A stretch of DNA of 35,492 nt from Candidatus Nanopelagicales bacterium. GTDB lineage: Bacteria > Actinomycetota > Actinomycetes > S36-B12 > JBBRLC01. Below the pieces are notes generated by a model. It saw only the letters and a list, made by a program, of their open reading frames with translations. It made no database searches and was not told where the DNA came from. The stretch covers positions 1 to 35,492 of the forward strand of contig JBBRLC010000001.1 of assembly GCA_038231595.1 (NCBI GenBank), in the 5' to 3' direction. The translations under genes and the position numbers were made by a program. This document shows, piece by piece, positions 1-35,492 of this stretch (its first letter is position 1; the number at the start of each line of letters is the position of its first letter).

Positions 1-1
1 C

Positions 2-130
2 CAGCCGACCGTGACCGTCGAATCGGGCACATGTTCGGCTGGCTCACTTGGGATGTTCACATACTCTCGGGGCATCACGCCCACCTCCATCAATGGAGAA
101 GCCGCCACCTGGTTGGTTGCGGGGGTTTAG
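2..130 (+). CDS. 3' end of an unknown CDS entering from the left window edge
   Basis: Frame 2 is open from the edge to TAG 128-130. Translation QPTVTVESGTCSAGSLGMFTYSRGITPTSINGEAATWLVAGV looks protein-like with mostly G/C-ending codons. It is absent from the ORF track because it has no start in the window. Confidence 0.25.
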   Translation, partial: QPTVTVESGTCSAGSLGMFTYSRGITPTSINGEAATWLVAGV

Positions 131-210
131 GGGTTGTCGTGGTTCCGGAGCCTGACCAAGGCGGAGCACGAGCTCATCGAGTGGGCCCTTTCAGGGACCG
201 AGGGAGCCGC

Positions 211-810: not shown

Positions 811-1851
811 TCACTCCAACCAGATTTTGTAAGTCGCGGCCACGCGGCCCCGGTCGGGGTCGATGAAATGCAGCCGTTGTGACGGGATAGCCGACGCCGC
901 CATGTGAACCCCGGCGTAGCGGTTGTCAGATTCGGTGGAGCCGGTTTGATAGACCGCACCCATGCCGTTAGCCATCGACCACTCCGCGTGCGTGTGGTAA
1001 TGCCCCAGGTACAGGTCGCGGAACTCCCACGGGTACGCCCCGGATCGTTGCCGGTTCGCCCACTGAACCAGCGCGGCGGGTGAGGCGAACCCGTTGCGGC
1101 CCACCTCGTCGCCGTGGATCAGCAGGGCGCGGTAGTTGCCGATCTCGATGCGTTGAATGTCCTCAGGGCAGTCCTGCCACGTCAGACGTTTCTCACTCGC
1201 GAGAAGTTGCTTGGCGAGTTCGTAGCACATGCGGTCGATATTGTCGCTGCGTGGCACGGCGTCACGCTTCGACCCGATGCGCCCGTGATTGCCCCATTCG
1301 GGCACCACAGTCACGCGGTCGTAGATCGTCAGCGCCGCAGACACGACGTCGGTAATCAGCCGCGAAACAGTGACATACTGTTCGAACAGCGTGGAGTCAA
1401 TCTCGTAGGGCTGGGTTGGGAAGTTGAACAGCCCTTCCACCATGTCGCCGCCGAAGGCAACAACGGCGTCGCGCACCGGATGATCGGCGCGTTGAATGTC
1501 GGTGATCTTCGTGGCCTTGTCAACGAATCGCAGGACCCGTTCGCGCATCACATCGGAGTTGTACGACGTGGTGAGTTTCGAGCCTTGCCAGTCGGACAGA
1601 ACCCACAGGGCCGCCTCCCCGCGAGGCTTGCGCCGGTCGCGGGAAGGCGCCGCAATCGTCGTCGCAGGCCAATGCGACAACACCGCTTCATGGCATGACC
1701 TGATCGTTGCATCGGTCAAAGCATCGTTGCGGGTTTTCGCCCGCTTCAACTGTTTCTGCACATTGATCAGAGCTGCGCGCAGTTCGTCACGTTCCGCCTT
1801 GCCCGTTTCGGCGTCGAGTGCTTCGGCGAACGTCACGGTCGGCACTTGCAT
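811..1851 (-). CDS. calcineurin-like metallophosphoesterase
   Basis: 346 aa with the motif series GGDMVEG / WGNHGR / LIHGDE / LGHYHTH. Confidence 0.85.
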   Translation of the reverse strand: MQVPTVTFAEALDAETGKAERDELRAALINVQKQLKRAKTRNDALTDATIRSCHEAVLSHWPATTIAAPSRDRRKPRGEAALWVLSDWQGSKLTTSYNSDVMRERVLRFVDKATKITDIQRADHPVRDAVVAFGGDMVEGLFNFPTQPYEIDSTLFEQYVTVSRLITDVVSAALTIYDRVTVVPEWGNHGRIGSKRDAVPRSDNIDRMCYELAKQLLASEKRLTWQDCPEDIQRIEIGNYRALLIHGDEVGRNGFASPAALVQWANRQRSGAYPWEFRDLYLGHYHTHAEWSMANGMGAVYQTGSTESDNRYAGVHMAASAIPSQRLHFIDPDRGRVAATYKIWLE

Positions 1852-2189: not shown

Positions 2190-3176
2190 TCAACGCAGCC
2201 ACGTCACACCCGGCCATGCCGCGAGGTTGGGGTACGGGCCGAGCCCGCCCTTCACAACGACGTTGCTTGTCGAGACCGCCACGTTGTTGGCCCACAGTAG
2301 GTACTTCGCTTGCGCGTTGCCGGTGATCTCAACGTTGCGGAGGATGTACGGCTTGACGGGCGGTGCGCCGGAAATGTCGAACGGGCTGATGAACGTGCCC
2401 TGGTAGCCAGTGGTGCAGGCGAAGCCGTCAACACGTAGCAAGTTCGGCCCGGTCCAGCTCTGCAAACAGTCGGCGTGGTTGGTGGTGTACGACCCGAGCA
2501 GTGGTGCCCCGAAGTCGATGTTCTGCAACGTCACAATCGACGCGCCCGACTTGGTGGAGATGTCGATCCCTTCGGTCAAATCACCCGCGCTAGAGCCGAA
2601 CGTAATGCCGCGCAGATAGACCTCGCCCGTTGTTGCAAGTATGTACGAGGCGCGACGGACAACCCCGTTGCGCGATCCCCGAGGATCACCGCCGCTAACA
2701 ACGTATCCAGCGCCCACATCAACGAAGCAAGGGCCGACGAATACGACGTCGTGGGCGTTTCTGATTTCGAGTCCATGTGCGTTCACCCACACACCGCTAG
2801 AGGGGCAGCGCAGAATGTAGTCGCCGCTACCGAATGACGGGGTGACGCCATTGGTCAGCGTCAGTGTCGTTGGGTTGGTCAGGGTTGGCGGTGCCCACGA
2901 GTTGCCTACGCCGCTAGTCGACGTAGGTGACGGTGTGGGATTAGGCGGTGCCGTCGATGAGGACGTAGTTGTGGGTGTTGTGGTTGGCGTAGGTGACGGG
3001 GTGGGCGTCACAAGCGACGCCGCAAGTGCAGCGAGGTCGTTCTGCGCCGCCACGAGATGCTGCTGCGCGTCGCTGATTAGTTGACTCGACGTGGGCGGCG
3101 CGACACCGTTGGCAACGATCACGGACCCAAACGTCAGGGCCACAACCGCTAACGTAACCGTCCATGCCCGCCTCAT
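2190..3176 (-). CDS. secreted/membrane-anchored protein with Pro/Thr linker and beta-helix-like C-terminal domain (lysis-cassette associated)
   Basis: ATG 3176 overlaps the endolysin stop (ATGA). Signal/anchor MRRAWTVTLAVVALTFGSVIVANG, then a PT-rich linker, then repetitive short beta segments (LEIRNAHDVVF, LQNIDFG, LRNVEITGN). Confidence 0.75.
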   Translation of the reverse strand: MRRAWTVTLAVVALTFGSVIVANGVAPPTSSQLISDAQQHLVAAQNDLAALAASLVTPTPSPTPTTTPTTTSSSTAPPNPTPSPTSTSGVGNSWAPPTLTNPTTLTLTNGVTPSFGSGDYILRCPSSGVWVNAHGLEIRNAHDVVFVGPCFVDVGAGYVVSGGDPRGSRNGVVRRASYILATTGEVYLRGITFGSSAGDLTEGIDISTKSGASIVTLQNIDFGAPLLGSYTTNHADCLQSWTGPNLLRVDGFACTTGYQGTFISPFDISGAPPVKPYILRNVEITGNAQAKYLLWANNVAVSTSNVVVKGGLGPYPNLAAWPGVTWLR

Positions 3177-3973
3177 CTCGTCGCCCCCACAATGGGGGAA
3201 AGTGACTTCCAAGTACGCGCACCGACCGTGCCGCTGCGGTCAAACGCCAACAGGTACGGGTGTCGGCGCTGGAAGGCGGCGACCACGGATGCGAGATCGG
3301 GGCGGTACAACCCGTCAATCGTGTGCAACCCGAACCGCTTGTAAAGGGCAACCACGTCGGGACCCTTAGAACCCAGACGCAATCGAACGCCCCCATAGGG
3401 CAGGGCTGCGGCGGGGTTGACGTTGCGGGTGCCGTCAGAACGAATCCCAAGTTTACGCGCCACAGCCAACGCCTCAGTGCGGTTCACACCTGGCGCGATG
3501 TAGTGGTGCATTTCGTCAATCAGGTGGTTGTACTGCCCGACCGACTGTCCTGGGTTCGCCTTCGATGCAGCCGCTGTCGGCCCACCCCACGCGATGGCGC
3601 CGTTGTAATCGGCGAGTAGATGCCCCACGGCGACGTTTTCGGCGTGGGTCATGTGCTCACGGTTATCGGCCTTGAGGATGTCATAGCGGATATCGATCGC
3701 ATAGCCGTCGTGATCGGACACCGCGCCACCGCCCGCGCGAGCAGGCCGGGCGGCGAATGAGTCCAGTGGCCCGCCCTTGTTCAGCGTCAACCGCCCGCCC
3801 CCGAGCGCGGGATGCAACTGCCAACGTCGGCAGTAGTCAAGGAACAGCGGCAGCGCCCAGTCAACGGCGGTGATGCTGCGACCCAACGGGCGGCGCACAC
3901 AGCGCGTGCCCGGTACGCGACCGGAGATGACCCGCGACGGTGGCGACTGATGCCCCGAGATGGTGACGCCCAC
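3173..3973 (-). CDS. lysA: endolysin (lysin A): M15/VanY-type zinc peptidase plus PG_binding_1-like wall-binding domain
   Basis: GTG start. Carries SDHDGYAIDI (SxHxxGxAxD) and DEMHHY motifs. The C-terminal GSKGPDVVALYKRFGL...FQRRHPYLL...GTVGARTWKSL is a peptidoglycan-binding repeat. The gene sits directly after the holin. Confidence 0.85.
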   Translation of the reverse strand: MGVTISGHQSPPSRVISGRVPGTRCVRRPLGRSITAVDWALPLFLDYCRRWQLHPALGGGRLTLNKGGPLDSFAARPARAGGGAVSDHDGYAIDIRYDILKADNREHMTHAENVAVGHLLADYNGAIAWGGPTAAASKANPGQSVGQYNHLIDEMHHYIAPGVNRTEALAVARKLGIRSDGTRNVNPAAALPYGGVRLRLGSKGPDVVALYKRFGLHTIDGLYRPDLASVVAAFQRRHPYLLAFDRSGTVGARTWKSLSPIVGATR

Positions 3974-26611: not shown

Positions 26612-28966
26612 TCATCTTGGCTTCGATTCGCCCAGTTTGAAACGCCCCTGATCGTTAGTTATCCACAGGAGATCGATAGCGAGTTCAGTGGCGTCACCTT
26701 GGAACTTCCGGCTGCTCTCAGCGGCCCTCGCAAAGCAGCTCTTGGTGCATCCGCCGCCTTTGTCTTCGTGGTATTTGGCGGTGTCGTGGGCTTCGATGAT
26801 GCCCCTGTATCGCAGTGCCACCTTCTTGAGGTGGTCACCTAGTTCGGTGTCGTTGGCGATCTGCCGGCGGGCATCGGAGCGGCCTTTGTTCTCGTTGAGG
26901 TCGCCGCGTTCGGTGGCCCGCATCGCCATGATTCCGTCACGTACCGTGTTCGATGCGTCGATGAGAACGCCGGATAGCTCCCACATGGCGTCGTCGATGT
27001 CGCCTCCACCGTGGAGTAGCGACAGGGCTACGGCTGCCTTCAGGCGGCACATAACGAGGTGGCCGTCTAGGGCGTCGATGGCAAACTTGTTCTGTTTGCG
27101 CTTGTTGTTGCGGACGTAGTCGACGACGTGTTGTGGCATTTGCACCTCAACCATGCGTTCGGTGGTGGTGCCGCCGTGTGCGATGGGTGGGCGCCAGTCG
27201 AGCGGGTCAGGTGTGGGCGGCTCAACGTCGGGCATGTGGGGGTCGATGGTGGGTAGCCATAGGAACCGTTGTGGCGTGCCCGCTGCTGTGGCATCGGCGC
27301 CTAGCAGGGCTTCTGCGCGCCCTGGTTGTACGCCTGCAATGAGCGCGAGTCGGTAGGCGTGTTCGGAGAGGTGTCGGCGACGGCTGGGGTCTGCGTTGTG
27401 GGTGCCGACTGCCGATCCTGACCAGATTGAGCGTAGGAACGGCCCGATCGTGGCGCCTTGCCTAGAGGACAGGGCGGCGAAGGTGTCGATTTCGTCGATG
27501 GTGACGATGGCGCGCCAGCGTGTTTGCACCCATTCGACGTGTCCGTCTTGCTTTTGTGGCTCGATGTAGAGGGCGATGAGTCCTTCGCCTGAGCCGATGC
27601 CGAATGATTCAACTTCGTCGTAGCCGAGTAGTTCGCGTGCGACTGAGGATGTGACGGATTTGCCGGAGCCTGATGGGCCGACGAGGGCGACGTAGGTGTT
27701 GAGGCTGCCTTGTGATCCGACTGTGGACGGCAGGACTAGGGACGGCCCGGTGGCGGCGATGATGCGGGCGAGTGTGGCGCCTAGTAGCGCCCAGGGGCTG
27801 ATGAGTCGTGCGCGGGCGAACGTGGCGACGTGGGTGAGTGTCGGCGTGGCTGCGAAGAAGGCAGTCTCGACGGCCAGGGGTGGCACCCAGGCGGTGCGGG
27901 AGATGAGCGCGGGTGGCGATTGTGCAGATTGTTCAGTATTTGGCTCGTTGACTGACACACGCGAAGGCGCTGCCTGTGCGCCATAGCCGGATGCGGCGAG
28001 CGCCTTTGTGGCCGCCCGCATGTCGCCGTGGTGCTCAAGGCGGGCGTAGACGTAGAACTTGGTGGACGGCTGATCTGCGGGTAGGTCTGTTGATGTGGTG
28101 AAGACGTACATGTGGCGGTCGCGGGTAGTTGCGCTGATGCCGATGTCTTTGCCGGGGCGTCGCCATGCCTCGTTGGGTAGTCCGCCGCGTGTGGCGGTGT
28201 AAACGTGTCGCCACCCGTGGCGGGTGAGCAGTTCGGCCCAGTCGCCGCGTTCGTTGTAGTCGTCCACGGGCGAGTCGGAGCCGTGCAGCATTGATTTGCC
28301 TGTGGGCGTGGGTGTGGATACGGGCGCGACAGATTGGTCGAGGAAGCGCAGCAAGGCGTGCAGGGCGTCGCGTTCGACGTTGGTGAAGTCTGGGGTGTGT
28401 TCGGGCTGAGTGGCGTTGATGAGGACGTAGTTGGCGCCGAGGTCGTGGCCCTTGCGTCCTGTGGTGGGGGCGACGATGACGAATCCGCCTTCGCCACGCG
28501 TCTCGGCGAGCACCTTTTTGGCGGTGTCGTCGTAGGCGAGTTTCGTGTTGCCTAGTGCTGGGCCGTCGCTGACGCGGATGAACATGTGTAGCCCAGCGGT
28601 GGGCGACATTTCGACGCAACCGCCGAGCGCGCGGTCAAGTAGGTCGCCTAGCCCTGAGGCTTCGGCAACGGCTTTGATGTCTGTGATGGCACCGGCCTTG
28701 ACGGCGATGCCTTCAAGCTCCAACATCTCAACGCGCCCGGATGTCGCCCCGGTGAGCACGCCGATGCCGTCGTATTTGCCTGACGCCATCCATTCGATGA
28801 CCTGTTCACGGCTGGGGCGTTGGGTTTGGTAGTCCTTCCATGCGCCGAAGGGGCGTTTGTCGCGGTCGGGGTGGCTCGGTACGACGGCGTAGCCTGCGTC
28901 GAACCATCGCAGGGCTGCCGTTTGTAGCGCGCTGCTCGTTGGTGTGGCAGCGGTGTCCACGCCCAC
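26612..28966 (-). CDS. bifunctional primase-polymerase / helicase (PrimPol N-terminus, D5-like ATPase)
   Basis: GTG start. AGYAVVPSHPDRDKRPFGAWKDYQ…GIGVLTG. Walker A GPSGSGKS and Walker B IVTIDEID. Confidence 0.9.
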   Translation of the reverse strand: MGVDTAATPTSSALQTAALRWFDAGYAVVPSHPDRDKRPFGAWKDYQTQRPSREQVIEWMASGKYDGIGVLTGATSGRVEMLELEGIAVKAGAITDIKAVAEASGLGDLLDRALGGCVEMSPTAGLHMFIRVSDGPALGNTKLAYDDTAKKVLAETRGEGGFVIVAPTTGRKGHDLGANYVLINATQPEHTPDFTNVERDALHALLRFLDQSVAPVSTPTPTGKSMLHGSDSPVDDYNERGDWAELLTRHGWRHVYTATRGGLPNEAWRRPGKDIGISATTRDRHMYVFTTSTDLPADQPSTKFYVYARLEHHGDMRAATKALAASGYGAQAAPSRVSVNEPNTEQSAQSPPALISRTAWVPPLAVETAFFAATPTLTHVATFARARLISPWALLGATLARIIAATGPSLVLPSTVGSQGSLNTYVALVGPSGSGKSVTSSVARELLGYDEVESFGIGSGEGLIALYIEPQKQDGHVEWVQTRWRAIVTIDEIDTFAALSSRQGATIGPFLRSIWSGSAVGTHNADPSRRRHLSEHAYRLALIAGVQPGRAEALLGADATAAGTPQRFLWLPTIDPHMPDVEPPTPDPLDWRPPIAHGGTTTERMVEVQMPQHVVDYVRNNKRKQNKFAIDALDGHLVMCRLKAAVALSLLHGGGDIDDAMWELSGVLIDASNTVRDGIMAMRATERGDLNENKGRSDARRQIANDTELGDHLKKVALRYRGIIEAHDTAKYHEDKGGGCTKSCFARAAESSRKFQGDATELAIDLLWITNDQGRFKLGESKPR

Positions 28967-29606: not shown

Positions 29607-30377
29607 TTATGCCCCGATTGCGTGCGAGACGCTTTCGGAAAGTTGTGTGTTTGCCGTGTTCCCTGGGCAGCCGCGCTGGAACGTCTCGTCGCCAGGTGTG
29701 TAGAACGGGCACCATTGACAGTCGGTTGGCGTGGCGGGGATGTGCGCCAACATCGTCGGGTTGTGTAGCAGGTCAAGCACGCCAACGGCGACAGCGACGG
29801 CATCGAGGCGGGCCAGTAGCGCCTCAACCTGGTCAACGTCGTAGGCCGCTGACCAAACGTGCAGCCCGGTGGTGGGGTTGGTGATGAACCCGCTGCGCGG
29901 GTATGCCGCGATGGCAACGTCGTTGACTGTGTGACCCTGTAACGCCAACCCGTGCCCGTACAGCATCACTTGGTTGACGTATTGCTCTTTCGGCCCGCGT
30001 AGTCGCAACTCACGATGTGAGTCGGTGCCGAGGATCTTGTGGTCGATGACGGTGCCGCTCGGGATGTGGAACAGGTCAACGGTGCTCGACTCGATGTAGC
30101 CGGGAATCGTGATCTTGTGCTCGATCAGCCAGTCGGCTGCGCTGTCGCTTGCCCCGAGAGCGTCGGCCAACCATGCGTGTGTTGCGGTGCCCACGATGGC
30201 GCACCAGGGGTCGCCACGATCGGCGCGCTGTGGCAGGCCAACGTGTTTCGCTGCGATGAAACGCGCGCACGGGTGCCCCGCCTCCGATGCGCCGAGGTGC
30301 GCTTGTAGGCTGCGCGGCTTGTTGGCGTCGGCGTGCAACACGATCCCGCGTAGCGTTGCAACGAGGTTGAATCTCAT
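29607..30377 (-). CDS. Cas4/RecB-like PD-(D/E)xK exonuclease with Fe-S cysteines
   Basis: VDLFHIPSGTVIDHK (D…DxK) and QYVNQVMLY (QxxxY). Cys at HPCARF plus CQWCPFYTPG…C. Confidence 0.85.
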   Translation of the reverse strand: MRFNLVATLRGIVLHADANKPRSLQAHLGASEAGHPCARFIAAKHVGLPQRADRGDPWCAIVGTATHAWLADALGASDSAADWLIEHKITIPGYIESSTVDLFHIPSGTVIDHKILGTDSHRELRLRGPKEQYVNQVMLYGHGLALQGHTVNDVAIAAYPRSGFITNPTTGLHVWSAAYDVDQVEALLARLDAVAVAVGVLDLLHNPTMLAHIPATPTDCQWCPFYTPGDETFQRGCPGNTANTQLSESVSHAIGA

Positions 30378-30814
30378 GCGAATTTCCTTTTCCCCTGCTT
30401 CTGATCGTTGAGTCGGTCACACGCCTTGCAGTACCTGTTGCCGTTGCGGCGGATGCCGGTGTTGGCGTCGTTGAAGCTGTGGCCTCGCGGGCAGAACATT
30501 TGACGCGTCATCGACTTGCGCTTGCCCGTCTTGCGTCGCAGCGATTGACGTTCGGCAGGGGTTAGCCCGCCCCACACGCCGTAGTCCTCGTTCATGCCGA
30601 CTTCGAGGCATGCGAGTTGAACGGGGCAATCAGCGCAGATGGATTTGATGTAGGCGACGTTTTCGCGCACGCGTGCGCGTGCGGTGTCGCCGAACATGGT
30701 GTCGTCGTTGAGGCCGAGGCAGTTGGCTCGGCGATGCCAGTCGGGTGAGTTGAAGGCGGGGACGGTGTAGCCCTCGCCGATGACGGGGTTGTCTCCGTGG
30801 CGCCGTTGCGTCAC
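30374..30814 (-). CDS. whiB: WhiB-family regulator fused to a C-terminal zinc-ribbon
   Basis: CLGL…CADCPVQLAC…GVWGG, then CPRGH…GNRYCKAC. GTG 30814 gives a GTGA overlap with the upstream stop (the track start at 30838 is also GTG). Confidence 0.85.
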   Translation of the reverse strand: MTQRRHGDNPVIGEGYTVPAFNSPDWHRRANCLGLNDDTMFGDTARARVRENVAYIKSICADCPVQLACLEVGMNEDYGVWGGLTPAERQSLRRKTGKRKSMTRQMFCPRGHSFNDANTGIRRNGNRYCKACDRLNDQKQGKRKFA

Positions 30815-31146
30815 AACTCCACCGCCCTGAGTAGCCACAGGAATGTGGCGCCGTTCATGACGACGAAGCCGTCAAGCGGTGACGTTTTGCCCCGCGACTT
30901 CGCCCACACGACGCCGTACTCAGCACCATCGTTTTTGCGTTCGATCTCGGCTTCTTTCAACCATCCGGCGATGTCGTAGGTCTTGACGGCTTTCGCTTCA
31001 ATCACCCAGCCGATAACCCCGGCGATGTCGCCGCGGTCCAGTGCGCCGGACAGTGCGCGGCGTTCAGCACCGGGGAAGCCGTTGGCACGCAGGGTGGTCA
31101 CGATGGCGGACTCCCACGACGTGCCCTTGTTCTTGCTACGGTTCAT
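30811..31146 (-). CDS. Hjc-like PD-(D/E)xK nuclease (putative Holliday junction resolvase)
   Basis: KGTSWESAIVTTLRANGF…DRGDIAGV…VIEAK. Confidence 0.7.
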   Translation of the reverse strand: MNRSKNKGTSWESAIVTTLRANGFPGAERRALSGALDRGDIAGVIGWVIEAKAVKTYDIAGWLKEAEIERKNDGAEYGVVWAKSRGKTSPLDGFVVMNGATFLWLLRAVEL

Positions 31147-32177: not shown

Positions 32178-32894
32178 TCATGCCGTTGCCCCCATAAGTA
32201 GTGACTGCTCGACGGGGGTGAGGCTATGGCTCCCGGTGCGTTTCGTGAGCCGGTCGTGTTCGTCTATCAGTCCGGTGAGGAATACGATCCCGCCAGCGGC
32301 GCCCCTACTGGCGGCAGCGGCGGCAGCGGAGGCGATAGCGAGTTCAGCGGCAGCGGAGGCGTCGAACGCGAAGTCCGCGCAGATTGCGGCGTAGACTTCG
32401 GCGGCAGCGGTGGGGGAGGAGGCGCAGATAGCGAAGCCCGCGGCAGAGACGCCGTCCTCGGCAGCGGCGGCAGCGGAGGAGACGGAGGCAGCGGCGGCAG
32501 CGGCGTTCTCCCTGCTCGGGTTGTCCGCCCACTTCTCAGCCGCCACAATGGCTGCCTCGCACACCGCCCTGTCCTTCCGGCGAAGATCCCCGAACACCCG
32601 TCGCACCGACCAGACGGCGAGACGAACCGACAAAACTTGCCGCTCTGCGGGGGTGCCCGCCTCGGCGGTGCCGAACAGGCGCCCAATCAGCGGCACCAGC
32701 AGGTGCCGATCCGCATCGGCCAGGCGGTCGTTCACGTTGCGCGCCACTGTTGCCAGCACCGGATGCGTACACCCAGGCCGGTCTGAAAACTTTTCACCGG
32801 CGAGGATGCTCACGTATTCCATGAGACACGCCCCATCCTCGGGGCGTGCGTGTGCGCCCTTCGCTAGCACGGGCATGAACTCTGGCGTTGTCAT
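32178..32894 (-). CDS. uncharacterised protein, tandem paralog B (238 aa)
   Basis: Near-identical N- and C-terminal blocks to paralog A, with a divergent Ala-rich centre. Confidence 0.8.
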   Translation of the reverse strand: MTTPEFMPVLAKGAHARPEDGACLMEYVSILAGEKFSDRPGCTHPVLATVARNVNDRLADADRHLLVPLIGRLFGTAEAGTPAERQVLSVRLAVWSVRRVFGDLRRKDRAVCEAAIVAAEKWADNPSRENAAAAAASVSSAAAAAEDGVSAAGFAICASSPTAAAEVYAAICADFAFDASAAAELAIASAAAAAASRGAAGGIVFLTGLIDEHDRLTKRTGSHSLTPVEQSLLMGATA

Positions 32895-32992
32895 TTGGTT
32901 ACACCTTCCAGTTGGTAACGGTCAGGAGTCGGTCGAGGAATCTGTTCACGGGGTCACCGCCATCCCGTCGGCGAGGTGCGTCGCGAGGTAGG

Positions 32993-33424
32993 TTAAGACG
33001 GCTGCACCTCCCTGCACGGCGGCGACCAGGGTTCGTCTTCGCTCAAGTACTTGGTGGCAACCCAGCCGCCGCGGACGCCGATGAACCCGCCGTCAGGATG
33101 GACATACACGCGGGCGACAGAGGTGAGAACGGCGCCGAGTTCATCGGCGCACGCTCTGGCGTCGTCCTGCAACATCGTGGAACGGGCGCTGTGCTGCGAC
33201 GGGTCACCAGCGCAGGCGTCGTGAAGTAGTTGATCGGCGCACTTCCACGACTGGTACGTCGCCGCCGCCCTGTCGTGATCAACATTGAGTGCGGCGAAGA
33301 TGATCGCGACACTCTCGACATCCAGCCCGTTGTGATCCACGCACGCCAACAGTTCGCACAGCGTCGCGCCGAGGTCGGTTGTCTCGACGTCGACACCGCT
33401 GATGCCGGGATAGACGCGCATCAC
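32993..33424 (-). CDS. hypothetical protein (143 aa)
   Basis: Track ORF. Its start overlaps the upstream stop (GTGATG). Confidence 0.7.
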   Translation of the reverse strand: MMRVYPGISGVDVETTDLGATLCELLACVDHNGLDVESVAIIFAALNVDHDRAAATYQSWKCADQLLHDACAGDPSQHSARSTMLQDDARACADELGAVLTSVARVYVHPDGGFIGVRGGWVATKYLSEDEPWSPPCREVQPS

Positions 33425-33609
33425 CAGCCCGCCTCAATCGCGCCGACAACGCAGAACAAGGCAATGGCGAAGACGACGAACAGGGCGGCGCCGACGTACC
33501 CGCCGAACGTCGGCGACTTCACCGCCCGTATCACCCGTGATACATCGCTGGCGAGGGTCCGGCTCTTGTGACTGACTGACCCGTAGCCGCGGGCTTCGCC
33601 AACCGTCAT
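33421..33609 (-). CDS. small C-terminally anchored membrane protein (62 aa)
   Basis: ATG 33609 overlaps the upstream stop (ATGA). TM helix GGYVGAALFVVFAIALFCVVGAI. Confidence 0.55.
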   Translation of the reverse strand: MTVGEARGYGSVSHKSRTLASDVSRVIRAVKSPTFGGYVGAALFVVFAIALFCVVGAIEAGW

Positions 33610-33962
33610 GGGTGACAGGGCAACGTCAGGATCGAACGGTACGTTCGCCAACCGACTGTTCCTGCGGTGTCGTGGCGTAGGTCCTGCCAACGTGTGTATG
33701 GGCGCAACAGGTACGGGTGACGTTTCTGAAACGCATACACCGCCGCCCGGTCCGCCGCATTGAACGGGCGCCACAGGGGTGTGACGGGCAACCCGAGATG
33801 TGCGCGAACGGTGTCAACGGTCGGCCCTTGCGCCCCGATATCGATGATGCGGTTGTCGTATCGCACTGACACGCATGTCGTTGTTGCTGCGTCTGCGGTG
33901 ACAGCGGGTGTGGCGGCGAGTAGTGCGGCGGTCGCTAAGACGGCGGCGCCGGTGCGGCGCAT
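33606..33962 (-). CDS. secreted protein consisting of a signal peptide plus a PG_binding_1-like domain
   Basis: Starts MRRTGAAVLATAALLAATPAVTADA. Carries GAQGPTVDTVRAHLGL…FQKRHPYLL…GTVGWRTYRSI, which parallels the endolysin C-terminus. Confidence 0.75.
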   Translation of the reverse strand: MRRTGAAVLATAALLAATPAVTADAATTTCVSVRYDNRIIDIGAQGPTVDTVRAHLGLPVTPLWRPFNAADRAAVYAFQKRHPYLLRPYTRWQDLRHDTAGTVGWRTYRSILTLPCHP

Positions 33963-34132
33963 CACGACGCGTCCTGCCTCATCGTTTCCAGCATGGCGAT
34001 TTCGCGGCGGCGTGCCACGTTGATGCGGTCGCGGTTGGCGCGGGCTTGCCCCATGCACGCACCGACGCAAAAAGCGGCGGTGAACAACAGGGAACCGCAA
34101 ACCCATGCGGCGCCTATCAATAGGACGTTCAT
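33962..34132 (-). CDS. 56-aa N-terminally anchored membrane protein (not in ORF track)
   Basis: Encodes MNVLLIGAAWVCGSLLFTAAFCVGAC… GGAAGG lies 7 nt upstream, and the stop overlaps the next ATG by 1 nt. Confidence 0.5.
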   Translation of the reverse strand: MNVLLIGAAWVCGSLLFTAAFCVGACMGQARANRDRINVARRREIAMLETMRQDAS

Positions 34133-34180
34133 GTCAGACCTTCCAGTTTGTAAGTGTCAACAACCGTTCAATAAATGTGT

Positions 34181-34324
34181 TCACTGTTTTTCCCCTGCGC
34201 TGAATGGGCGCAGAACGTGCGCCAGTTCGTCTGCCAACGCTGTTGCGTCGTCGTGTAACATCGCTGCGCGACTGGAGTGCTGCGATGGGTCGCCTGTGTG
34301 TGCGGCGTGCAGGGTGCGGCTCAT
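34181..34324 (-). CDS. 47-aa protein sharing a motif with the 143-aa protein (not in ORF track)
   Basis: Encodes MSRTLHAAHTGDPSQHSSRAAMLHDDATALADELAHVLRPFSAGEKQ. ATGA overlap with the cro-like stop. Confidence 0.45.
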   Translation of the reverse strand: MSRTLHAAHTGDPSQHSSRAAMLHDDATALADELAHVLRPFSAGEKQ

Positions 34325-34509
34325 GCGGCGACCTGCGCAGTCCAGTTGCGCAGAGTGCGTTCCGTTACGTCAACCTGCCCGCCGCTGGCTTGGGCGATTG
34401 CCTGCCCGATTCGGCGCCACGAGACGCCTTGTGAGCGCTGGGAAACGATGAATGCCTCAACCGGTTGCCCTAGGGCTAGGTCTGCGAGGGCTTGGGCGTG
34501 GGTTCGCAT
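34321..34509 (-). CDS. cro: Cro-like HTH protein (62 aa), first gene of the leftward operon
   Basis: Internal ATG of track ORF 34321..34545. HTH SWRRIGQAIAQASGGQVDVTERTLRNW. Divergent from the repressor. Confidence 0.7.
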   Translation of the reverse strand: MRTHAQALADLALGQPVEAFIVSQRSQGVSWRRIGQAIAQASGGQVDVTERTLRNWTAQVAA

Positions 34510-34512
34510 AAC

Positions 34513-34606
34513 CCGGAACTTATTCCGGGAAACTGGAATAGTCAAGCATTTCCTGGAAACCCTTGCGCCATTCGGGTCCTGCGTCTATCTTCAGGAAACC
34601 GTTTCC
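34513..34606. promoter_or_regulatory. divergent control region with three TTCC/GGAA-type palindromes (candidate operators)
   Basis: CCGGAACTTATTCCGG (34513-34528), TTTCCTGGAAA (34549-34559) and GGAAACCGTTTCC (34594-34606). Confidence 0.5.
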
Positions 34607-34638
34607 GGTTTAGCGGAGACCATCTAGGGAGGAAACCA

Positions 34639-35001
34639 ATGAAAACGACGATGCCGAATTCCCCCGGCACTCGTGGGGAAATCGAAGAGAACGTGCGCCG
34701 AAACATCCTGGGAGAGCTAGGGAAACGGCGCGAACACCTGAACTGGCTAGCTGCCCTAGTCCCGTCGATTTCGCAATCGACGCTTTACTCGCGTTTCAGC
34801 GCCACGCACCCCACAAGGTTCACCCTGAGTGAGATTCTGGAAATCGCGGATGCTCTCGACGTAAGCGTGGAGGCTCTGTGTCTGGACCCTTTTGGGCAGC
34901 GTCGTGATCCCGCGCTGCGGCTCCCGCGTCTGGACTCGAACCAGAAACCTGCCGGTATCTGGTACAAAGCTAGCGCCCACAGGCTCAAGTCAGCAGCCTG
35001 A
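34639..35001 (+). CDS. rep: XRE/CI-type immunity repressor (virion form, 120 aa) ending in -SAA
   Basis: ATG preceded by GGGAGGAAACCA. HTH ISQSTLYSRFSATHPTRFTLSEILEIADALDVSVEAL. The C-terminus reads …HRLKSAA. Confidence 0.8.
   Translation: MKTTMPNSPGTRGEIEENVRRNILGELGKRREHLNWLAALVPSISQSTLYSRFSATHPTRFTLSEILEIADALDVSVEALCLDPFGQRRDPALRLPRLDSNQKPAGIWYKASAHRLKSAA
34918..34957 (-). other. attP common core: 3' part of a tRNA (T-arm plus acceptor strand), not a complete tRNA
   Basis: The minus strand reads …GGCAGGTT TCTGG TTCGAGT CCAGA CGCGGGA G. This is a perfect 5-bp T-stem, a TTCGAGT loop, a 7-nt acceptor 3' strand and a discriminator. No anticodon or D arm can be folded upstream. Confidence 0.6.
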
Positions 35002-35009
35002 CCCAACCG

Positions 35010-35492
35010 ATGCAGTCGATTATGGGGACACAACGGCGGGCAGGGCAGAACGTCCAGATAGTGCGGCACAACCGGCCAAGTTGGTGCGCGGAAATCGCCG
35101 CATACACGTTGCACATGCAGGCAGCCGGGTCATCGGCGCTGACTGTGCTTGTGCGGTGCCACCAACTGGAACGGGCGTTCGCGTGGACAGGCGCCAAGTC
35201 GCCGTGGCAGATAAGCGATGAACAAATCATTGCCTATCTCGCGTCCCACGATTGGGCGCCCGAGACGCGCAAAAGCGTCCGTGCAGCCCTTCGCGGGTTC
35301 TACGCCTGGGCTGAAGATTCGGGCATCATCACAGATAATCCGACCCGCCGCCTACCGCGAAGTTGGCCCATACGCCACCAACGTCCTCAGACAGGATCTG
35401 GATCTGAGGCCCTAGGGGTTGATCATCTTCCGGATCAGTCACACATTGGACGTTACGGCATGGCTGCCCTCGGTGGAAGTTTGACTTTCAAA
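35010..35492 (+). CDS. int: tyrosine integrase, N-terminal part (runs off the right edge)
   Basis: The frame is open from TAG 34971-34973 to the window end, with ATGs at 35010 and 35022. SAM-like core-binding domain pattern: WCAEIAAYTLHMQAAGSSALTV…ETRKSVRAALRGFYAWAEDSGIITDNP. Confidence 0.85.
   Translation, partial: MQSIMGTQRRAGQNVQIVRHNRPSWCAEIAAYTLHMQAAGSSALTVLVRCHQLERAFAWTGAKSPWQISDEQIIAYLASHDWAPETRKSVRAALRGFYAWAEDSGIITDNPTRRLPRSWPIRHQRPQTGSGSEALGVDHLPDQSHIGRYGMAALGGSLTFK

Follow-up and report, generated by a model that had tools for sequence, protein, structure and literature searches.

A phage immunity cassette with the attachment site inside the repressor gene, aimed at tRNA-Asn and most likely decayed by truncation of its integrase

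Here, we analysed a DNA stretch of 35,492 nt (contig JBBRLC010000001.1 of assembly GCA_038231595.1, Candidatus Nanopelagicales bacterium), referred to as the window throughout, which turned out to be an almost complete circular phage genome. Close to its right end lies a repressor gene (rep) with a tRNA-like stretch in its 3' part, followed by the beginning of a tyrosine integrase gene (int) and accompanied by a cro-like open reading frame (ORF) on the opposite strand (Table 1). The rep and int ORFs are adjacent and co-oriented with a gap of 8–20 nt and no terminator between them, while the cro-like gene diverges. A rep-int operon with a divergent cro gene and a phage attachment site (attP) inside rep are hallmarks of integration-dependent immunity, as are a core of about 35 bp that overlaps a tRNA gene at its 3' end, a stop codon arising where phage and host sequence join, Rep and Int proteins with ssrA-like tags, the lack of a recombination directionality factor and complete dependence on an active integrase (PMC3694055, PMC4557955, PMC9262239). 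An initial annotation, made from the letters of the sequence, had proposed such a layout for this region. We consider it likely that a cassette of this type, arranged as cro / rep(attP) / int and aimed at tRNA-Asn(GTT), is present here in the state of a decayed copy, and that the phage is unable to lysogenise alone.

Table 1 Features of the rep-int region, given in window coordinates.
Feature	Position	Strand	Description
rep	34639..35001	+	120 amino acids; XRE-type helix-turn-helix (HTH) repressor, long (viral) form; HTH at residues 12–81 (34672–34881)
attP common core	34920..34956	-	3' half of tRNA-Asn(GTT); plus strand codes for Rep residues 95–106 (LPRLDSNQKPAG)
Rep tail	34957..35001	+	residues 107–120 (IWYKASAHRLKSAA) and stop codon; would be separated from rep by integration
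Integrase remnant	35010..35360	+	N-terminal SAM-like/core-binding domain only (Pfam PF02899, E = 9.5e-5, residues 30–103)
Non-integrase sequence	35361..35492	+	the remnant ORF reads into it; continues for 253 bp outside the window, via a probable terminator hairpin, to window position 1
cro-like ORF	34321..34545	-	74 amino acids from TTG 34545 or 62 amino acids from ATG 34509; from the ORF list, also called in Logan contig L001
Candidate operator palindromes	34523..34606		TTCCGGGAA(AC) at 34523, TTCCTGGAA(AC) at 34550, GGAAACCGTTTCC at 34594–34606

The rep gene starts with an ATG behind a GGGAGG ribosome-binding site and codes for a protein ending in ...HRLKSAA. When the single sequence was used as query, matches in Pfam stayed below threshold and those to PHROG repressor families were weak. 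A profile of the Rep family matches XRE-type HTH proteins in the PDB, including P22 C2 and the 434 repressor, and residues 1–92 of Rep, with the tRNA-coded peptide left out, aligned to 30 relatives with an hhalign probability of 97.1% (E = 5e-11). In an AlphaFold model based on 48 sequences, five helices extend over residues 12–81 with predicted local distance difference test (pLDDT) values of 86–98, forming the five-helix HTH DNA-binding domain by which XRE/Cro-C1 repressors are recognised. Foldseek searches with the model returned the DNA-binding domains of SinR, C.BclI and P22 c2 at template modelling (TM) scores of 0.7–0.8, and also that of lambda repressor. Profile and model together place Rep among the XRE-type HTH proteins of the repressor type. 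Residues 82–120 show no regular structure in the model (pLDDT 61–65), which predicts an unstructured, exposed tail. We regard this tail as a putative ssrA-like degradation tag by analogy to phage BPs, which also provides the basis for assuming proteolysis of tagged Rep (PMC4557955).

According to the initial annotation, the rep ORF reads straight through the 3' half of a tRNA on the minus strand, located at 34918–34957, and ends in -SAA. Sequence and ORF list bear this out, and the boundaries given for the fragment were right to within 1–2 nt (34919/20–34956). The minus strand of 34920–34956 reads ACCGGCAGGTTTCTGGTTCGAGTCCAGACGCGGGAGC and contains a perfect T-arm (TCTGG-TTCGAGT-CCAGA) followed by the 3' acceptor strand; in full, the core extends from position 38 via the 3' side of the anticodon stem, the variable loop and the T-arm to the 3' acceptor strand, the discriminator and one base beyond it. 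ARAGORN called no tRNA gene in the window and Rfam gave no tRNA match even at E ≤ 10, therefore the tRNA-like stretch is a fragment and not a complete tRNA gene. D-arm and anticodon arm are missing, as noticed before, and identity to tRNA-Asn begins only at position 38. When up to three mismatches were allowed, a 23-nt part of the core was found at a single place in the window and in none of 100 shuffled sequences.

Whether a host tRNA gene shares this core had been named beforehand as one of the points on which the proposed layout would stand or fall. A scan for exact 35-nt matches in 185,579 bacterial and archaeal species, each represented by one genome, returned five contigs, all of which carry the match in the 3' half of a tRNA-Asn(GTT) gene that is followed by a tRNA-Met gene. 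Identity amounts to 37/37 positions in four contigs of metagenome-assembled genomes (MAGs) and to 38/38 positions (34919–34956) in the fifth (L010); it runs from tRNA position 38 to the discriminator plus one or two bases and ends abruptly on both sides. The stretch 34920–34956 thus is a standard attP/attB common core with tRNA-Asn(GTT) as attB, and the proposed layout stands on this point. Three of the matching contigs are labelled as Frankiaceae or Sporichthyaceae MAGs, one is an unclassified MAG and one was binned as Spirochaetaceae, and the core points to a Frankiaceae/Sporichthyaceae-like actinobacterium as host of the phage. The contig deposited as 'Spirochaetaceae bacterium' (L006, JAJAYQ010000057.1) is of high GC content, carries the same tRNA-Asn/tRNA-Met pair with an identical tRNA-Asn 3' half and is probably a mis-binned actinobacterial contig.

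In every candidate host, CTGTTA is found directly 5' of the core on the tRNA strand, hence the in-silico attL junction in the frame of rep reads ...AAA CCT GCC GGT|TAA. The stop codon TAA at this junction stems from U35-U36-A37 of the anticodon loop, read as the reverse complement. The predicted integrated Rep would end at Gly106, and integration would at the same time rebuild the tRNA from the host 5' half and the phage core. It had been expected that integration replaces roughly the last 14–27 codons of rep including -SAA; the tail would indeed be cut off, with exactly 14 residues (IWYKASAHRLKSAA) being lost and none gained.

Relatives of Rep were difficult to find. A word-seeded search of 5.8 billion proteins with the window Rep recovered only Rep itself, and a full phmmer search of 1.8 billion representatives yielded two distant relatives (P0006 and P0007). 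A family profile built from these two proteins, the window Rep and the Rep of contig L023 retrieved 211 proteins, 120 of which were listed and are considered here. The family search was seeded on shared words and is therefore biased towards the motif described below; the split of the family into two forms is not due to that bias. An [LM]DSN motif, almost always in the form LPRLDSNQ(Q/K)P, is present in 110 of the 120 listed relatives. Twenty-six of these 110 proteins stop exactly four residues after LDSNQ, while the remaining 84 have tails of 4–50 residues (mode 13), ending in -AA (44 proteins), -VA (13), -AS (10) or -SA (5) in most cases. A tail ending in Ala was found in 64/84 long forms and in none of the 26 short forms.

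The core is read in the same frame in the relatives L023, L002, L175 and L176 and in three natural lysogens (L092–L094). In two of these relatives, the Rep protein reads through a tRNA-Asn-type core, with the sequence ...GLPRMDSNHQPPGL...STVA in L002 (Logan) and ...LLPRLDSNQKPAGSGG...VALAA in L023 (IMG/VR). Both contigs harbour intact cassettes composed of a divergent HTH gene, rep running through the core, and a complete 260-residue integrase ending in -LSVA or -SIPA. The lysogens provide the integrated counterpart. On a 103-kb metagenome contig (L092), the gene for a 93-residue Rep that terminates directly after ...LLPRLDSNQKPAG lies partly over a complete tRNA-Asn gene of the opposite strand, and the rep 3' end likewise overlaps a complete opposite-strand tRNA-Asn(GTT) in Rhodococcus olei (L093) and Nocardioides soli (L094). 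The rep stop codon is the anticodon-loop TAA in all three cases, and the overlap separates phage genes from host genes such as dnaG or trehalose-phosphate synthase. Prophage junctions of exactly this kind are predicted for the window.

Given these data, it can be regarded as effectively refuted that the tRNA likeness is coincidental or goes back to a decayed phage tRNA gene unrelated to integration. Such an origin could draw on the missing tRNA calls by ARAGORN and Rfam, but the identity over 37–38 bp is exact and has sharp limits at the anticodon loop and directly behind the discriminator, the core occupies the same position and frame in dozens of Rep genes of unrelated sequence located beside integrases, the lysogen junctions lie exactly there, and no match was obtained in shuffled sequences. 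The two forms of the family also bear on the role of Rep itself. Rep might be an ordinary repressor irrespective of integration, with core and Ala-Ala tail as ancestral leftovers and any lysogeny being extrachromosomal. The long repressor gp33(136) of BPs equals the short form in DNA binding (PMC4557955), and a long form could therefore in principle repress if it were stable; moreover, -SAA differs from the canonical -LAA, and the genome encodes its own Prim-Pol/helicase replication protein. However, the strong enrichment of Ala-terminal tails in the long forms and their absence from the short forms among the listed relatives speak for a function of the tail across the family, the Rep tail is predicted to be accessible rather than folded, and neither ParA/ParB nor other maintenance genes were seen in Pfam scans of the largest ORFs. 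We thus consider an integration-independent Rep improbable.

The two Rep proteins closest to that of the window, P0006 and P0015 (about 35% identity; L175 835–1248 and L176 3435–3812), have retained a perfect tRNA-Asn-like core together with a long tail that ends in -VSA. The rep stop codon of L175 is overlapped by a coiled-coil-like ORF of 131 residues and not by an integrase gene, and tblastn found no integrase in contigs L175 and L176. Their integrase may be encoded elsewhere or may have been lost.

What became of the integrase in the window phage? Closure of the genome was relevant here. A Logan contig (L001), which was found by look-up of the exact window Rep sequence and serves as a second assembly, consists of window 32880–35492, additional 253 bp (L001 2614–2866) and window 1–141, with 100% identity throughout. 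The window thus lacks 253 bp, between its end and its position 1, of a closed circle of 35,745 bp. This gap contains a strong hairpin with a U-tract after it on the minus strand (dG −49 kcal/mol, z −5.5). It probably terminates the long minus-strand operon and may explain why the deposited contig breaks at that point.

The integrase ORF has its first ATG at 35010, as initially annotated, with a distance of 8 nt to the rep stop codon, and runs off the end of the window. An alignment with the conserved MGxxRRxGQNV start of its relatives favours ATG 35022, which is likely to be the true start. The nearest integrases (P0002–P0005; 260–279 residues, all with PF00589) share 39–54% identity with it over their first approximately 110 residues (51–54% for P0002–P0004), and the alignment ends at ...NPTRRLPR, i.e. 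at residue ~117 or window position ~35360, before the catalytic domain. Beyond this point, the ORF continues through unrelated sequence, across the hairpin and then antisense to an 87-residue minus-strand gene. The R-H-R-Y catalytic domain of tyrosine recombinases (PF00589) was detected neither by Pfam nor by alignment nor by tblastn, in which four full-length integrases matched only 35022–35399 of the 35,745-bp circle and no catalytic domain elsewhere. No other integrase, serine recombinase, ParA/ParB or other partition protein was found by Pfam among the 30 largest ORFs or by PHROG among nine of these and seven smaller ORFs. As judged from these comparisons, the catalytic half of the integrase is missing from this genome. 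The gene announced as a tyrosine integrase is therefore represented by its N-terminal domain only; a degradation tag at the integrase C-terminus, for which a check beyond the window had been suggested, has no C-terminus to reside on, and the working switch that the annotation implied is not supported.

Could the cassette nevertheless be fully functional, the truncation being an assembly artefact or a minority variant, or Int being borrowed from a related resident prophage, so that the phage integrates at tRNA-Asn and Rep changes from tagged to untagged? The attP core matches living tRNA-Asn genes perfectly over 37–38 bp, no stop codons or frameshifts are present in rep, its tail or the Int N-terminal domain, and perfect cores with no integrase next to rep also occur in L175 and L176, whose integrase may sit elsewhere or act in trans. 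However, both assemblies are 100% identical across the integrase breakpoint, and L001 is continuous from rep via the breakpoint into window position 1. In addition, no catalytic-domain match exists in any frame of the circle and no other recombinase was seen among the ORFs screened. We therefore regard a fully functional cassette as unlikely.

The absence of the catalytic domain and of any other recombinase instead suggests that the cassette is most likely a decayed copy. In an intact cassette of this kind, Rep and Int would be produced from one operon. The free phage would make the 120-residue Rep with its disordered tail ending in -SAA, which is presumed to be degraded. Recombination by Int between the 37-bp core in rep and its identical counterpart, the 3' half of the tRNA-Asn gene of the host, would rebuild the tRNA and leave rep to end in ...KPAG followed immediately by TAA. 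The resulting untagged Rep of 106 residues would maintain immunity. In this genome, int has kept only its first ~117 codons, the catalytic domain is deleted and no other recombinase was found among the ORFs screened, so that the tagged viral Rep of 120 residues would still be made with no route to the 106-residue form. Growth would be lytic only, unless a related integrase acts in trans. Integrase-defective BPs is completely defective in lysogeny (PMC3694055), and together with the truncated int this leads us to predict that the phage does not lysogenise alone. That the core is still perfect and rep still intact suggests a recent loss of the integrase.

Several points weigh against a decayed cassette. 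Both assemblies may derive from one sample, and a minor population with intact int would be compatible with data at the assembly level. The recombinase screen covered only part of the ORFs below approximately 100 residues. No close relative with an intact integrase is present in the databases searched, which is why the endpoints of the deletion cannot be defined by comparison. A perfect core and an intact rep fit a very recent loss, but also continued use, e.g. with Int provided in trans. The junction-specific pattern of host CTGTTA, core and phage flank gave 0 matches in metagenome contigs, and core plus phage flank gave 0 matches in IMG/VR; junctions in lysogens, for which the initial annotation had suggested to look, were thus seen in relatives (L092, L093, L094), while no lysogen of this phage was found. 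Finally, the tag role of -SAA and the operator role of the palindromes described below are putative. A more speculative scenario, which we deem very unlikely, is that the integrase-less cassette is being maintained, either with Int supplied in trans from related resident prophages at tRNA-Asn (integrase piracy) or with the Int N-terminal domain serving as a regulator that binds attP/rep. Since L175 and L176 keep perfect cores without an integrase beside rep, a recurrent integrase-less lifestyle instead of a one-off deletion would be possible.

The integrase family was also inspected in its own right. In tblastn searches with P0004 against phage records, Gordonia cluster CW phages were the best named matches (44–50% identity), accompanied by 296 mycobacteriophage records. 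In most of 80 IMG/VR loci with integrase relatives (L012–L091), int starts 10–300 bp from the contig end, which fits prophage ends where integration has separated int from rep. Several ORF tails upstream of these integrases contain other tRNA-derived peptides (GIRTPNL, GIEPPT, GFEPWTSG) and Ala-Ala ends. The automated survey of rep tails upstream of the 80 integrases was noisy due to its longest-ORF heuristic in high-GC DNA and is used here only qualitatively.

The cro-like ORF diverges from rep and heads the long minus-strand lytic operon. A divergent ORF with ATG 34509 is present as initially annotated; it has no match in Pfam or PHROG and none to an HTH family, and a cro-like role is suggested by its position, at which relatives encode genes of the HTH_17, HTH_31, HTH_26 or HTH_3 families. 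A match to the Xis/HTH_17 family was found neither for this ORF nor for its neighbours, small ORFs not being screened exhaustively. The control region between cro and rep contains three palindromes, TTCCGGGAA, TTCCTGGAA and GGAAACCGTTTCC, which occur nowhere else in the window, have the half-site GGAA(AC) in common and are candidate Rep operators. The sequence TTCCNGGAA has two copies in the window, both in this control region (expected 0.41; two copies were reached in 4/100 shuffles), and the single copy of GGAAAC-N-GTTTCC in the window (expected 0.02) is located there as well. A scan of the region for sigma-70 consensus promoters found none, which is uninformative as actinobacterial promoters fit the consensus poorly.

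Elsewhere in the circle, Pfam and PHROG identified portal, protease, capsid, tail tube, terminase, Prim-Pol/helicase, WhiB, two exonucleases and endolysin. The early region codes for a WhiB-family protein (30374–30838, minus strand), a Prim-Pol/DUF3987 primase-helicase (26612–28966, minus strand) and a Cas4-like exonuclease (phrog_1674; 29607–30377, minus strand), a gene content typical of actinobacteriophages that agrees with the host derived from the attP core. At the DNA level, 33500–35492 had no match among 50,697 phage records. For the 87-residue gene that spans the junction of the circle, IMG/VR contains no relatives. An exonuclease-like gene at 811–1851 (minus strand; phrog_284, E = 1e-39) has more than 600 IMG/VR relatives with 67–73% protein identity on contigs of 37–42 kb; close relatives with an intact integrase were sought via this gene, and no relatives of Rep, Int or Cro were present at the 80 loci fetched. 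Seven of its relatives were compared and share no other neighbouring gene, and the exonuclease gene appears to be a widely exchanged mosaic module. Adjoining the immunity region, a 166-residue ORF (33606–34106, minus strand) encodes a hydrophobic, signal-peptide-like stretch near residues 40–65, and its last ~70 residues resemble the C-terminus of the endolysin (3173–3973, minus strand) with 39% identity (E = 3e-9) and the motif FQ[KR]RHPYLL in common. This module may be a cell-wall-binding domain.

Our results leave the known mechanism of integration-dependent immunity unchanged and add to it modestly by a new host clade, by tRNA-Asn as a target whose anticodon loop provides the stop, and by the loss of the integrase. 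They extend this type of immunity to phages of Frankiaceae/Sporichthyaceae-like actinobacteria with tRNA-Asn as attB, and reveal a large family of XRE repressors (at least 110 protein clusters at 90% identity) that exists in a tagged and a tRNA-truncated form, the stop of the short form coming from the tRNA-Asn anticodon loop. They also provide what is most likely a natural case of a cassette losing its integrase, for which published genetics predict a conversion from temperate to lytic. For lifestyle predictions from metagenomic phage genomes, this means that the entry 'integrase present' would here result in a false temperate call.

The best-studied point of comparison are the mycobacteriophages BPs, Brujita and Charlie (Clusters G, I, N and P). 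As in these phages, rep and int are co-oriented with a divergent cro-like gene, attP lies in the 3' part of rep, a host tRNA gene has a 3' end identical to the core of about 35 bp, and a stop codon is created directly at the (here predicted) junction. The viral Rep has an Ala-Ala-type C-terminus, the integrase belongs to the group of small tyrosine integrases without arm-binding domain, and no excisionase was recognised among the ORFs screened. The initial proposal of an integration-dependent immunity layout is further strengthened by the attB found, the junction seen in lysogens of relatives and an integrase whose nearest named counterparts are those of Gordonia CW phages. The target is tRNA-Asn here and tRNA-Arg in BPs, 14 residues would be removed from Rep compared to 33 in BPs, and the anticodon loop provides the stop as a TAA, unlike in the BPs type. 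Apart from the XRE fold, the window Rep is unrelated in sequence to BPs-type Rep, and a Frankiaceae/Sporichthyaceae-like host distinguishes the phage from these mycobacteriophages. The chief difference, however, is the integrase without catalytic domain, and the defining dependence on integration can therefore not operate here.

Gordonia CW phages (McGonagall, Jeanie, GMA5 and GRU3) show integration-dependent immunity with a 37-bp attP in rep and tRNA-Lys as attB (Pope et al. 2017, PMC5559632), and rep lies directly upstream of int as in the window. In McGonagall Rep, the T-arm is read in the same frame (…RDSNPEPAD…), and the protein ends in ...IRDSNPEPADRLLSLVAA and thus in -LVAA. These phages differ from the one analysed here in their attB and their genomes of 16–18 kb, and they are temperate with intact integrases; similarity between their Rep and the window Rep is not detectable outside the tRNA-coded peptide. 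Closer to the window are the uncultured relatives with a tRNA-Asn core (L023, L002, L092–L094), which have a Rep of the same family and the same peptide LPR[LM]DSN[QH][QK]P.. from the tRNA-Asn 3' half. Their long forms end in -LAA or -TVA and their short forms at the anticodon-loop TAA, overlapping a complete tRNA-Asn. They differ in that the integrase, where one lies next to rep, is complete (260 residues or more, ending in -SVA or -IPA), and by a Rep identity to the window of only ~30–40%.

A literature search found no paper joining integration-dependent immunity with a truncated integrase. The nearest published parallel are the integrase-defective mutants of BPs, in which rep and attP are likewise intact while active Int is missing; complete loss of lysogeny was published for them and is predicted here. 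Those are laboratory point mutants, whereas the window phage carries a natural deletion of the whole catalytic domain. All architectural features of the BPs type are present in the window and a functional integrase is not, and we therefore describe the region as a decayed derivative rather than a working member of this group.

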